The notes under the pieces were generated by a model. It was not told the DNA's origin. It ran no database searches and was given only the letters and a program-made list of their open reading frames with translations. A program made the translations under genes and the position numbers. A stretch of DNA of 64,000 nucleotides from Octopus vulgaris (taxonomy: Eukaryota), in NCBI GenBank assembly GCA_951406725.2, contig OX597823.1, positions 79,484,001-79,548,000 on the forward strand. The letters are read 5' to 3'. Shown here piece after piece: positions 6,521 through 60,020 of the stretch (its first letter is position 1; every line of letters starts with the position of its first letter).

Positions 6521-7440
6521 TAACTTAAAATAATAAGGGTGAAAAATTGAATATTGATTTGAATAAGTATCAATTTAAAACCAGTGGTCTAGTATATAGA
6601 AAAATCTGAAGATTCAGAAGAATTATATTGCATACATATAAGAAGGATGACCACTAAGTGGACATCCATTATGCTATATGTCGACCCCCTATGGTTTTAC
6701 CACTAAGAAAGGAATGTTCTCAAGAAAATTTAGCAAAAGCCAGAACATAAGCGAGCAAGACAAATGAAAAGATACAAAATATACAGATTAATCACAAACC
6801 CAGTTTCGTTGTTACCACTTACGTAGATGTCCACAACTCGTCAGTGTGATCGTCATAGCAAAATGTAATTTGAAGAACTATACACGAAACATCCACATGA
6901 GATTGAATATTTATATAGTTCTACCAATTACATTTGGGTTTTTTTTTTTCAAAAGTCTTCATTATGGCACACCAAAATACCGGAAATAATTCTGCAGAAA
7001 ATAATTCACTGCAGTGAATTTTGCCGGTTAGAGAACATAGTTATTTAGATTTAAATTTAAAATAATAAGAGTGAAAAATTGAATATTAATTTGATTAATA
7101 TCAATTTAAAACCAGTGGTCTAGCATATAGAAAAATCTGAAGATCCAGAAAAATTATATTAGGGAGAGTCTGAGAGACCCTGCGTATGGGCTACAAAGGA
7201 TGGTCGGAGTTGAAAACAGAGAGGTGGGAGAGGAAAGCAGAGAGAGAGAGGAGTAGACAGGAGGAACGGGGAAATGGTGATGGGGCTGTTAAAGATGAGG
7301 AATACGAACGCTATACAGTGAACCCTGATACTGTGGTGAGTGGACATACAAGGGAAATGAACCTTGTTTGAAAAGGTATTTGTGTTCGAATGGAAGAAAA
7401 ATGTATACTTAGTGGTCATCACTCTTATATATATGTAATA
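6521..7440 (-). mobile_element. Non-coding HHR-bearing PLE-like element, partial tandem (period ~532) with a short inverted end
   Basis: taataag(g/a)gtgaaaaattgaatatt...aattatatt at 6531 and 7063; 7409-7432 is an inverted copy of ~6635-6660; contains the HHR at 6791-6850; sits between microsatellites. Confidence 0.65.
6791..6850 (-). ncRNA. Type I hammerhead ribozyme
   Basis: Minus: atcaca CTGACGA gttgt..acaac GAAA c tgg g TT tgtgat. Stem I 6 bp, stem II 5 bp, minimal stem III, GUU cleavage triplet. Confidence 0.75.
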
Positions 7441-7745
7441 TATATATATATATATATAGCAATTAAGGACAACTACTTAATAAGGAAAACTTAACAAGAA
7501 ATTGTCAGGTAGATAGCGTGAAAACCTCATAAGAGAATAAATTTCGAAAATAATTATTTCTTATTGAACATATTAATTTATATATGGAGGGCATTATACA
7601 TACATGCCAGAGGGCATTATACATACATGCCAGAGGGCATTATACATACATGCCACACGCTAAGAGGGACAATTAGTCATTTCTACCAAAAATATTACTA
7701 ATCCCACCGAATGCAATTTTTCAAAGTAAGACATTTAAAAAATAT

Positions 7746-7793
7746 AGACCTGTATCACAGTGATTTCATACTTACGTATTCATCAGCAGGCCT
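7746..7793 (-). ncRNA. Type I hammerhead ribozyme (inverted copy)
   Basis: Exact reverse complement of 8265-8312. Confidence 0.85.
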
Positions 7794-8264
7794 GAATGTA
7801 TCATAAATAAACGACCCTGCCCCGCTTAAGTCGATCAGCTAACTGATCAACATCAACGAAGCACATGGGTGAGTTTACATATATTACATCCTGTAAATGG
7901 CATACTTTTACGAATTGCATTTCGGGAAAGGAAAATGTATAATGCCCTCTGGCATGTATGTATAATGCCCTCTATATATAAATTAATATGTTCAATAAGA
8001 AATAATTATTTTCGAAATTTATTCTCTTATGAGGTTTTCACGCTATCTACCTGACAATTTCTTGTTAAGTTTTCCTTATTAAGTAGTTGTCCTTAATTGC
8101 TAAATTTTTATTCCGAAAAAACTTTTCCTTTCCCGAAATGCAATTCGTAAAAGTATGCCATTTACAGGATGTAATATATGTAAACTCACCCATGTGCTTC
8201 GTTGATGTTGATCAGTTAGCTGATCGACTTAAGCGGGGCAGGGTCGTTTATTTATGATACATTC

Positions 8265-8312
8265 AGGCCTGCTGATGAATACGTAAGTATGAAATCACTG
8301 TGATACAGGTCT
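8265..8312 (+). ncRNA. Type I hammerhead ribozyme, intact core
   Basis: aggcctg CTGATGA atac-gtaa-gtat GAAA tca-ctg-tga TA caggtct. Stem I 7 bp, stem II 4 bp with GNRA loop, predicted cleavage after A8305. Confidence 0.88.
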
Positions 8313-8676
8313 ATATTTTTTAAATGTCTTACTTTGAAAAATTGCATTCGGTGGGATTAGTAATATTTTTGGTAGAAATGACTAATTGTCCCTCTTAGCG
8401 TGTGGCATGTATGTATAATGCCCTCTGGCATGTATGTATAATGCCCTCTATATATAAATTAATATGTTTAATAAGAAATAATTATTTTCGAAATTTATTC
8501 TCTTATGAGGTTTTCACGCTATCTACCTGACAATTTCTTGTTAAGTTTTCCTTATTAAGTAGTTGTCCTTAATTGCTATATATATATATATATATATATT
8601 AATAGCGTTCTGTCAATCGCTATACAAATCCATCATTTTTTGCTAAAATGTCTTATTGACGAGTTTCGTCTTTTTC

Positions 8677-8762
8677 ACTTTCCCGAAGAGAAGATTGCAT
8701 TGTTTATACCATTTATTCTTTTGAATAGTATCAGTGGAATTTTCGAAACATGTGTCGAAAGT
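8677..8762 (+). ncRNA. Type I hammerhead ribozyme, U4C core mutation, long loop II; in a ~200-bp element between (TA)n tracts
   Basis: actttc CCGAAGA gaagatt...aattttc GAAA catgtg TC gaaagt; near-identical to the intact copy at 22698-22783. Confidence 0.7.
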
Positions 8763-8808
8763 AAAAATATTTGATTTACACCTGCGTTAAACTCCATTTA
8801 TTTATTCA

Positions 8809-8970
8809 TATATATATATATATATATATATATATATATATATATATATATATATATATATATATATATATATATATATATATATATATATATATATATA
8901 TATGAATAAATATGTATGTATGTATGTATGTATGTATGTATGTATGTATGTATGTATGTATGTATGTATG
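8809..8970. repeat. (TA)n and (TATG)n microsatellites
   Basis: Seen directly. Confidence 0.95.
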
Positions 8971-57645: not shown

Positions 57646-57705
57646 CAGATTTAACCATCTCGCTACAGTCAAAAATTGTGAAGCATGACTGTCACCACTA
57701 CTACA

Positions 57706-57750
57706 TGAACCTGAAGACTGCATAATTTAATGCATGAAAGTACTAGTTCA
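57706..57750 (+). ncRNA. Minimal type I hammerhead ribozyme of the Penelope pLTR
   Basis: tgaac CTGAAGA ctgca-taatttaa-tgcat GAAA gtac TA gttca; palindromic stem III (agtact); cleavage predicted after A57745. Confidence 0.82.
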
Positions 57751-57912
57751 ATCAGAATGAATATTTAACATTCTATTATTTTATTTTATTTTATTATATT
57801 ATATTATTTTATATTATATAATTATAAGATTGTAAATAAAACGTGAAAATCAGACAAGGTTGGAATTCCTTTTATTAATATATATATATATATACATATA
57901 TATATATATATA

Positions 57913-58306
57913 CTAGCATTATCGCCCGGCGTTGCTCGGGTTGTAAGGGAAATAACTATATAAGCATTTTTAGAGAGTTATAGCCAAAAAATAGCAAACA
58001 AATGCATTAAAAATTGAAAAAAAATTAAGGTAATTTTTTTAAAATCGTTGACACATCGTAGATATTTTTAGAGAGTTACTTCCCTTATATAAAAGCGAAA
58101 AAAATGCATTAAAATGGAAAAATATGATGGTAAATTTTTTTTTAAATCGTAGACTCATCGTAGACGCACGCTAATACCCAGAAGGGCTCGATATGAATCA
58201 CGACTATAAGATACCCGCTTTTGGTTAAACTGCACCGCAAAATGTGGGAGTAGTTAGGAATCTAAATCGTAGGAGACAGACACACAACTTCACTCTTATA
58301 TAAAGA
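57913..58306 (-). mobile_element. Non-autonomous Helitron (longer variant of 17500-17795)
   Basis: 5' TC, hairpin cccgagcaacgccggg, 3' CTAG; extra ~95-bp internal partial duplication. Confidence 0.8.
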
Positions 58307-59180
58307 TGCTTTTTTTTTTCAGTCATAGAGTTAGATTTATGAAGGTCTTCAGTAGAAAATCCTTCGAATTCTGACTCGCTGCTTGATATAATGAAATTCG
58401 TATCCATTTTTTGTCAGAATTACAAATTTTGAAAACACAATAGGAAATGAGTAAAATAAAAACCAATTTACCTTTTCTGTCCGTCTGTGTGTCTTTGCAA
58501 ATGTGTTGGAATGATAAGTGAGTTGTGATTTGGCGCCTTTTTTACTAAAAACAAACACACACGTGTTTGTATGTAGTAGTATGTGTATGTAGTTGTATGT
58601 AGTTGTATATGTATGTGTATGCGTGTGTGTGAGGAATGACACACACACACTCACGCACGCACACATGTACATCAATGCTTTCCGAGTGATATGTTAAAAT
58701 ATTGAGTTTTCTCGAATTTTGTCTTAATTGGTGGTAAAATTGAAAGAAATTTTTTATGGCATCACCCACTGAAGTACTCTGAAAAATCTTAGGTAAACTC
58801 TAATTGAAGAAATTGTGTATTTATTTGTTTCTGTTTGCTGTGTTTTTTTATTTTTTGAGTAGTGGTTTAAATACTTTCACTTTAGTCTTCCTCAAATCAC
58901 TCTGTCGCTATTTACTTTCATTTTATTCGTCGCACACTGTGTGTGTGCGTTTGCGTGTGGTGTAAACCAGACTAAGAAAAGCATTTGACACACACACCAG
59001 AATGTGAGTTTTCGGTAAATTTTGCTTAATTGGAGTTTAAATTTAAAAAACTGGACCTGGCATGACGCGATGCATTGTACTCTTAAAAATGCTAGGTAAA
59101 TTGTAATTGAAGAAATCCTATATTGTAGATTTGTATAACTCCCAAAGGGAGGCAGATAAAATCTGCCTTTTATAATAAGA
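58307..59180 (-). mobile_element. Second Helitron-like 5' module joined upstream of the 57913-58306 element
   Basis: Minus begins A|TCTTATTATAAAAGGCAG at 59180; internal imperfect duplication (~58700-58820 vs ~59000-59120); no own CTAG/hairpin found. Confidence 0.5.
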
Positions 59181-59231
59181 TATATATATATATATATATA
59201 TATATATATATATATATATATATATATATAT

Positions 59232-59521
59232 AGGAGGCGCAATGGCCCAGTGGTTAGGAGGAGGATCGCGGTTTCGATTCCCAGACCGGGCATTGTGCGT
59301 GTTTATTGAGCAAAAACACCTAAAAGCTCCACGAGGCTCCGGCAGGGGGTGGTGATCCCTGCTATACTCTTTCACCACTCTTTCTCCCACTCTTTCTTCT
59401 GTTGGCCTGCTCGCTTAGCCAGCGGGTTGGCGTCATTCGAAGGCTAAAACAATGCGAACGCATTGTGACCAGCGATGTGTAGCAACATCTGATGGTCTGG
59501 TCGGTCACGTGATCACGTGAT
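59232..59521 (+). mobile_element. SINE family C with tail type 2
   Basis: ggaggcgcaatggcccagtggttagg head (small deletion); ends ggtcacgtgatcacgtgat; within (TA)n. Confidence 0.85.
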
Positions 59522-59689
59522 ATATATATGTGTGTGTGTGTGTGTGTGTTTGTATGTGTATATATATATATATATATATATATATATATATATATATGTA
59601 TGTATATATATATACATGTGTGTATATATATGTGTGTGTGTGCACATATCGATACATATATATATGTATATAAAAGATACATATATCGG

Positions 59690-60020
59690 GTAGCGAATAT
59701 TCGTTAGAAATATCACCACCAGTGGCCTAGCATGTATAAATAGTCAATAGACAACATATTCTTATTTTAAAATAGTGTACCTTTAAACACAAGAGAAAAC
59801 TACCCTTTAACAGGTAATTTTTACATGCTAGAAGAAGCAGCCAAAACCACGATTTAATAGCAATTTTCGAAGGAAATAACAAGGTAAAAGTTTTTATTTT
59901 TCATTTTTAGAGCCTTATTACTCTTAACACTCTTAACGGTTCAATTTCCAGTAATTTACGTATTTATTCTTCCTAAAATTTCCGTTGCATCTTGCAACTT
60001 CTTCAATAGTAGTTGATCTA
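59690..60020 (-). mobile_element. Relative of the 46960 HHR element with a degenerate core
   Basis: Shared sequence blocks; minus cta TTGAAGA a gttgc-aagat-gcaac g GAAA ttt tag at 59973-60009. Confidence 0.55.

Follow-up and report, generated by a model that had tools for sequence, protein, structure and literature searches.

Minimal type I hammerhead ribozymes are carried by Penelope-like elements (PLEs), in many families per genome (PMC4209133), with the published consensus CUGANGAH-G..C-GAAA-N-N-UH (PMC4209133 supplement). PLEs are known to target (TA)n (PMC8557442). Retrozymes have been described in coral and mussel (PMC7229834), and their origin from PLEs has already been proposed and supported (PMC7229834; bioRxiv 10.64898/2026.07.22.740005). 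In vitro, cleavage by PLE hammerheads is slow (PMC4209133), and what they do is described as unclear by Craig et al. (PMC8557442). Here, we analyzed the hammerhead motifs in a 64,000-nt stretch of the Octopus vulgaris genome (assembly GCA_951406725.2, contig OX597823.1, positions 79,484,001 to 79,548,000; the window, to whose numbering all positions refer unless a locus is named), together with their copies elsewhere in the 2.80-Gb genome. The results point to a known class in a new host and to one abundant core variant, family J, which is possibly undescribed and would likely cut poorly if at all.

Among the entries listed, literature searches returned no octopus or cephalopod hammerhead study and nothing relevant on inactive PLE hammerheads. 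A paper on octopus repeats (PMC13282606) mentions neither ribozymes nor hammerheads in its main text, the searched supplement of PMC4209133 holds no octopus entry, and the main text of PMC7229834 names neither octopus nor cephalopods. A first-pass annotation, made from the letters of the window, had suggested that both the diversity of families and their variant cores might be undescribed. As to diversity, this is contradicted by the 16 families reported in coral (PMC7229834). As to the cores, U3-A8, U4C and U10.1-U11.1 are variant kinds already in print (PMC3088659, PMC4209133), and the suggestion may hold for A6U, the change found in family J.

Results

The elements are, with high probability, type I hammerheads at PLE 3' ends: two families (C and J) are stubs of coding PLEs, two more (F and H) are likely to be so, and three (A, B and D) are non-coding units likely copied in trans. 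Observed are the motifs, the families of copies and their (TA)n junctions, and coding frames upstream of C, of J and in a window PLE at 55038-57213. Seven families were searched genome-wide, with 40 candidates scored per family and 25-30 loci retained, and all seven displayed PLE hallmarks. Their copies form partial tandems and inverted, 5'-truncated copies with a tail on one side only, an arrangement described for Neptune and Hydra PLEs, with which the octopus elements also share (TA)n targets and a GIY-YIG endonuclease at the C-terminus (PMC8557442). Within 22 nt of the 3' end, (TA)3 was present in 21/21 copies of F, 25/33 of H, 21/28 of J, 16/22 of C, 13/22 of B and 13/37 of A, in comparison to a background of 7.7%; many of the copies lacking (TA)n at this end run on into a tail or the next unit. 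The low count for D (1/33) results from the probe used, which ends within the unit. Thus, the microsatellite boundaries claimed by the first-pass annotation were borne out for most families, and its description of retroelements with PLE-type hammerheads and (TA)n targeting is supported. The hammerheads agree with the minimal PLE type (PMC4209133) in being type I, in the extra base between positions 9 and 10.1 and in the short palindromic stem III. They also have in common that a genome contains many families, that most copies are single and stem from truncated PLEs, that opposite-strand pairs lie 100-700 nt apart and that a U3-A8 variant occurs.

Family J departs from this scheme at a single core position. 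Its motif reads CUUU-CUGUNGA-A-GAGC-GUAG-GCUC-GAAA-CG-UH-AAAG and matches the minimal consensus except at position 6, where the consensus and the rows seen in PMC4209133 keep A and J has U fixed. The core CUGUNGA (A6U) thus lacks the A at position 6 that defines a type I hammerhead, and J is best described as a motif that may work like a consensus hammerhead without being filed as one. In the window, the truncated 3' end of a Neptune-type PLE at 46294..46470 (minus strand) carries the minimal hammerhead 46381-46416 with core CUGUCGA-A (core at 46412) and an additional change of G10.1 to A. The first-pass annotation had listed this site as degenerate; it belongs to the large A6U family, and another site so listed, 59973, is a decayed U3-A8 copy. 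Two further minus-strand copies had gone unnoticed, one at 14390..14527 (14471-14495, core CUGUGGA at 14495, with a deletion in stem III) and one at 47526..47677 (47621-47645, core CCGUUGA at 47645).

The exact 27-letter J pattern has 15,730 matches with U6 in the genome versus 602 without. Among the first 100 listed of these 602, hand counting gave C in 71, A in 19 and G in 10, a spread as decay would predict. At N7, the first 100 listed exact copies (hand count) show A 25, C 22, G 13 and U 40, and part of the U may reflect CpG decay. With a wider pattern, 23,197 matches were obtained. U6 is present in 81 of the first 100 listed, and each of these has the longer loop (hand count); of the 13 matches with the short loop, 12 carry A6. 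A6 sister lineages therefore exist, and U6 is likely derived. Copies in L116, L124, L127 and L134 continue upstream for 0.6-1.2 kb or more and enter a degenerate frame whose features, a CX2-5CxxC linker and GIY-YIG, also occur in Neptune PLEs (PMC8557442); the Neptune-type assignment is by motif and not by an RT (reverse transcriptase) tree. A homolog search with this frame returned one Octopus protein only.

A6 is almost always needed in hammerheads, so J likely cuts poorly or not at all. To assess constraint on the fold, 51 U6 copies were used out of 67 found, 13 A6-type and 3 rearranged ones being dropped. Subfamilies were clustered on the 3' flank and their majorities compared per column with a threshold of 0.15; three thresholds were run. 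The majorities differ at 27/87 flank columns versus 1/28 constrained hammerhead columns (Fisher p=0.002), and the 5' flank alone differs at 5/14 columns (p=0.011). A difference at N7 was seen with each of the three thresholds, and one at H17 with two of them. In J and its A6 sisters taken together, 94% of cells are paired, and between the two one stem I pair is swapped from C-G to G-C. We consider it probable that the J fold stayed under selection. The motif would most likely be either a ribozyme that is weak or acts with assistance, or an RNA structure that has been retained; a freely decaying relic is the less likely alternative. More tentatively, J, one of the most abundant PLE lineages of the genome, may represent an undescribed natural A6U core held under selection across subfamilies, either because it cuts by an unpredicted route (as a dimer, with Mn2+ or assisted by PLE protein) or because a crippled fold is kept for protein recognition. 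An A6 ancestor would have given rise to a fixed U6 form, which then spread with the rest of the fold kept.

Several properties of the comparison weaken the case for selection. The copies were retrieved by a fuzzy pattern on the core itself with 16/67 rows dropped, subfamilies of 3-5 copies stand beside one of 30, and of 11 pairs only the one swapped in stem I has changed on both sides. Stem covariation, named in the first-pass annotation as a check on the motifs, is thus thin in J and its sisters, and in family E it was seen by eye. Loop 2 is also nearly constant among subfamilies, beyond what catalysis alone requires. This last feature would suit a dead ribozyme, in which one master lost A6 by chance and was amplified since PLEs need no cleavage. 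We consider such a course of events, with recent common ancestry behind the conserved look of J, to be the less likely reading. Published activities fit a dead J, as hammerheads altered at position 6 are much less active (A6C, <0.1 per min; PMC3088659) and activity is low across the CUGA turn (PMC9901934), and Naiad PLEs spread without canonical hammerheads (PMC8557442). Against it, about 30% of flank columns distinguish the subfamilies but only 0-1 of the 28 constrained ones do, the core positions that vary are N7 and H17, which are also the two unconstrained ones in active hammerheads, and at N7 each of the four bases is frequent in the first 100 listed exact copies.

The closest natural precedent for a changed position 6 is the A6C hammerhead of phage Bcep176, which shows low activity in Mg2+ and is rescued by Mn2+ (PMC3088659; PMC7151607). 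It differs from J in having C and not U, in being a single phage copy and in not being of the minimal PLE type; the copies of J number at least 15,730, and their low activity is a prediction. No natural A6U or CUGUNGA core was found among the entries listed from the searchable literature, which does not include Lunse et al. 2017, a source that may list A6U. The U6 lineage had no match in metagenome contigs, a weak test in a mostly microbial collection.

Family C provides the clearest link to a coding parent. Its copies in the window are truncated 3' ends on the plus strand, one at 8600..8808 with hammerhead 8677-8762 and a CCGAAGA core (U4C) that is also present in two copies in L195, and one at 22495..22822 with an inverted tail and a canonical hammerhead at 22698-22783. 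A coding frame lies upstream of C in L096, L091 and L094. The open frame in L096:1-1353 spans at least 451 amino acids up to the locus edge in the order RT, thumb, GIY-YIG; it has a YRDD motif in the RT, a GIY-YIG domain without CCHH, and CxxC and CxH near the C-terminus. It has no Pfam match, and RT and GIY-YIG were assigned by motif and homologs (n=17). The named homologs of the frames upstream of both C and J are Octopus proteins. Hydra PLEs likewise have no CCHH and carry CxxC and CxH near the C-terminus, and differ from the C parent in their CxCX5C linker (PMC8557442). The parent would therefore fit the Hydra clade apart from the linker, the clade names resting on linker and endonuclease motifs and not on an RT tree.

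Families F and H are probably ends of coding PLEs too. F forms an inverted pair at 22856..23153 (hammerheads 22985-23047 plus, 22897-22959 minus), and its core combines U4C with one bulged base before GAAA. It has 3,568 exact genome matches, with C4 in 98 of the first 100 listed, and at several places head-to-tail copies follow one another with a period of about 2.58 kb. One series, at G000:C1:57,208,916-57,222,516, contains six F motifs (four in one orientation, two in the opposite one) about 2.58 kb apart, and is probably a multi-copy array of full-length PLEs. In H (52750..52930, both strands), the inverted 3' ends are very short and are accompanied by a tail of about 65 nt. A plus-strand hammerhead at 52859-52905 has U10.1-U11.1 and a U-U closing pair and was found (core 52863) only at a lower descriptor threshold. 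We had considered 52859 as a type III hammerhead or mere palindrome and dropped both options, as stem I was found beyond an 8-nt loop 3. H has 2,341 exact matches, and the first 100 listed include one head-to-tail pair 2,542 nt apart. A period of about 2.55 kb corresponds to the size of a compact coding PLE, which is why F and H are probably coding-PLE ends.

The U4C change is fixed in F and marks a subfamily of C, U3-A8 occurs in family K and U10.1-U11.1 in H. U4C cores are seen in at least four unrelated lineages (22991 and 8683 in the window; L152, L177, L214, L016). CpG decay would tend to revert such cores to U4, yet they persist in several lineages.

Families A, B and D are of a different kind. 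Their units hold no stop-free frame longer than 35-65 amino acids (65 in A) and are thus non-coding. B is inserted between (TA)n tracts on both sides at 7458..8576 (both strands) as an inverted copy (7458-7935, hammerhead 7746-7793 minus), a partial copy and a full 476-nt unit (8102-8576, hammerhead 8265-8312 plus). Same-strand repeats are spaced 474-477 nt apart, and B is a young family with copies 97-100% identical. D is a non-coding tandem of about 340 nt with a long extended stem I (13430..13950, plus strand; spacing 336-343 nt), in which hammerhead 13457-13504 is intact and 13800-13847 is defective, reading GATA for GAAA. Both B and D consist of tandem units with one type I hammerhead each. 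A is a 532-nt unit with a 108-nt terminal direct repeat (6521..7160, minus strand) and a canonical type I hammerhead at 6790-6851, with a predicted cut after 6797. By comparison of copies, the junction from repeat to unit start recurs in 17/25 loci, window included. No same-strand hammerhead pair was present in 25 A loci, short of the two or more in tandem of a retrozyme; the loci examined have one hammerhead per strand. As circles, B and A folded better than shuffles (z of -8.5 and -3.4 against 40 shuffles each), and two D copies gave -2.9 and -1.2.

These properties suggest that A, B and D are non-LTR (long terminal repeat) retrozymes or single-hammerhead relatives of these. The metazoan non-LTR retrozymes, too, are tandem repeats of non-coding units that each hold one type I hammerhead (PMC7229834), as in B, D and a 359-nt array in L186. 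Their size of 170-400 nt is exceeded by B and A, both of which fall in the range of 51-972 nt given by Li et al. (bioRxiv 10.64898/2026.07.22.740005). Circular RNAs of the octopus families are putative.

L186:2300-4560 (G000:C1:20,002,300-20,004,560) contains five plus two inverted canonical type I hammerheads spaced 353-359 nt apart (circle z -4.3 for the monomer), a clear retrozyme family without a copy in the window. A purine-rich 240-nt stretch (7161-7400), single-copy in about 1 Mb of sequence, lies between A and its inverted end. A back-joint from 8402 to 7950 in a contig coincides with the genomic tandem junction, and no conclusion was drawn from it. An ambisense ribozyme or anti-core in D was discarded, as the reverse-strand CTGACGA at 13543 lacks GAAA; in relatives, the CTGACGA stretch pairs with an upstream stretch as extended stem I.

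The first-pass annotation had read all short families as an independent radiation, in which non-autonomous and almost entirely non-coding RNAs would cleave themselves, form circles and have the PLEs of the window as drivers. This seems improbable as a whole. It captures A, B and D, which are short and non-coding with fixed unit lengths, which in B and A fold well as circles, and among which D is similar to the mussel retrozyme, being of like size and also lacking a coding frame (PMC7229834). It is already contradicted for C and J by the PLE frames upstream, and F and H recur at about 2.55 kb. The converse, that every family is the 3' end of a coding PLE, is true of C and J and does not appear to extend to A, B and D. 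Nor do the presumed drivers fit. The broken Neptune-type PLE at 55038..57878 (plus strand) has an RT frame (55038-56204), a stop and frame change, and then linker and GIY-YIG (56323-57213), with 427 homologs, many of them with RT plus GIY-YIG. It is followed by a hammerhead with palindromic stem III (57706-57750) and (TA)n at 57878. The second presumed PLE with RT and GIY-YIG, at 47834-48679 (plus strand, 3' region to 49260), is a thumb and endonuclease fragment with several stops and without RT. The type I fold proposed for both 3' repeats was found at 57706 and not confirmed at 49116, which requires two deletions and has no further copy in about 1 Mb of sequence. Since both PLEs are broken and their 3' regions have no sequence in common with the short families, they are not shown to be drivers.

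The motifs themselves were tested with a type I descriptor comprising the core, stem II with an optional extra base, stem III, UH and stem I, in a window of 36% GC with many microsatellites. Seven perfect-core motifs were detected (cores at 8272, 13462, 22704 and 57711 plus; 6844, 7786 and 47169 minus) versus none in 20/20 local dinucleotide block shuffles. When one core mismatch was permitted, 11 motifs were found (adding 8683, 13805 and 22991 plus, 22953 minus) versus none in 6/6 shuffles, and a stricter initial scan gave 5 versus a shuffle mean of 0.025. The full core C3 U4 G5 A6 N7 G8 A9...G12 A13 A14 A15.1...U16.1 H17 is present in seven motifs and also at 52863 and 14147; stems I-III are paired, open at stem I, in the motifs passing the descriptor. 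The sites at 6791, 7746, 8265, 8677, 13457, 13800, 22698, 22985, 47104 and 57706 listed by the first-pass annotation all pass and are real. Of its other candidates, 52859 passes at the lower threshold, 14144 is real with a 59-nt stem II, and 32821 was, like 49116, not confirmed. That the motifs are chance matches in an AT-rich, palindrome-rich region can be dismissed for those passing: lone motifs folded no better than shuffles in 12/13 cases, two candidates failed, and Rfam showed no hammerhead family among 150 listed of 205 window matches or in two local scans, but the absence of motifs from every shuffle, at a match rate far from similar, refutes chance, and thousands of copies keep the motifs at a fixed distance from PLE 3' ends. 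The case thus rests on descriptor counts and copy families and not on folding energy or Rfam, whose listed matches, microRNA only and microsatellite-driven, were set aside as support.

Such motifs are common across the octopus genome, as 40 evenly spaced 10-kb stretches contained 16 perfect-core motifs (7 in one array) versus none in 3 shuffles; the total extrapolates to roughly 10^5 motifs. Motif density is higher in the window (6 clusters/64 kb versus 10 clusters/400 kb, P about 0.006), an excess not counted as a finding because the window was picked for its motifs. The flanks of L001-L185 (351 kb) hold about 15 more unrelated canonical hammerhead families, so that family diversity genome-wide far exceeds that of the window.

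The window contains additional hammerhead families. E is an inverted pair at 13981..14350 (both strands) with a plus-strand hammerhead at 14144-14227 and a truncated minus-strand twin at 14095. The hammerhead (core 14147) has a 59-nt stem II, a 3-bp stem I and a palindromic stem III, and is visible only by aligning relatives, among which two-sided stem changes were seen by eye. A short motif ending at 'AAAACTGA' was rejected, as the true GAAA lies 59 nt further on. G (46961..47500, minus strand) carries a perfect-core hammerhead with a mismatched closing pair (47102-47176). K (59691..60020, minus strand; core 60006-60000) is the decayed copy of a U3-A8 minimal hammerhead; in most relatives the U3-A8 core is seen as UUGAAAA. 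K is related to G, and a short end motif is common to G, K and A (47325-47496, where it forms a 170-nt inverted repeat of G; 59679-59767; 6585-6600), so that the earlier statement of no similarity between families was slightly wrong. L (32214..32875, plus strand) has a hammerhead-like core at 32831 followed by GAAU. It was not confirmed as a hammerhead, as GAAU replaces GAAA in 5/5 aligned copies (window 32831, L066, L218, L131, L123; about 70% identity) and stems I and III pair poorly. The GAAU motif would be either an ancestral dead motif or another variant.

Neighboring retroelements comprise a broken long interspersed nuclear element (LINE) at 43489-46164 with endonuclease and RT domains, ending in (AGA)n and then (TA)n, which we take to be RTE. 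Two related C-terminal LINE RT fragments lie at 53620-54720 and about 33800-34690 and are presumably CR1-like; 54070-54717 gave no Pfam match.

Discussion

PLE biology offers a route by which these elements may have arisen. Tandem transcripts would be cut by their hammerheads, the minimal ones as dimers through the palindromic stem III. The GIY-YIG/RT protein of a PLE would nick (TA)n and start copying the RNA at its 3' end. In most cases copying would break off early and leave stubs of 70-350 nt that resemble separate short elements. A, B and D would borrow the PLE protein. Several points count against this account. Cleavage, circles and expression of the motifs are predictions, and for Xenopus retrozyme dimers only 1/9 tested cut (bioRxiv 10.64898/2026.07.22.740005). 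No autonomous partner was found for A, B or D, circular folding of the D copy in the window does not exceed that of shuffles (z -1.2), and the probable coding status of F and H derives from spacing.

Outside family J, the finding is a new host for a known class. Standard CUGANGA descriptors miss J entirely. The family constitutes a natural experiment, in which a core change expected to be crippling is present in at least 15,730 copies, with A6 sisters in the same genome as controls, and it would test whether PLEs need RNA self-cutting in order to spread. If a crippled fold is indeed kept for protein recognition, PLE hammerheads would have a job other than cutting.

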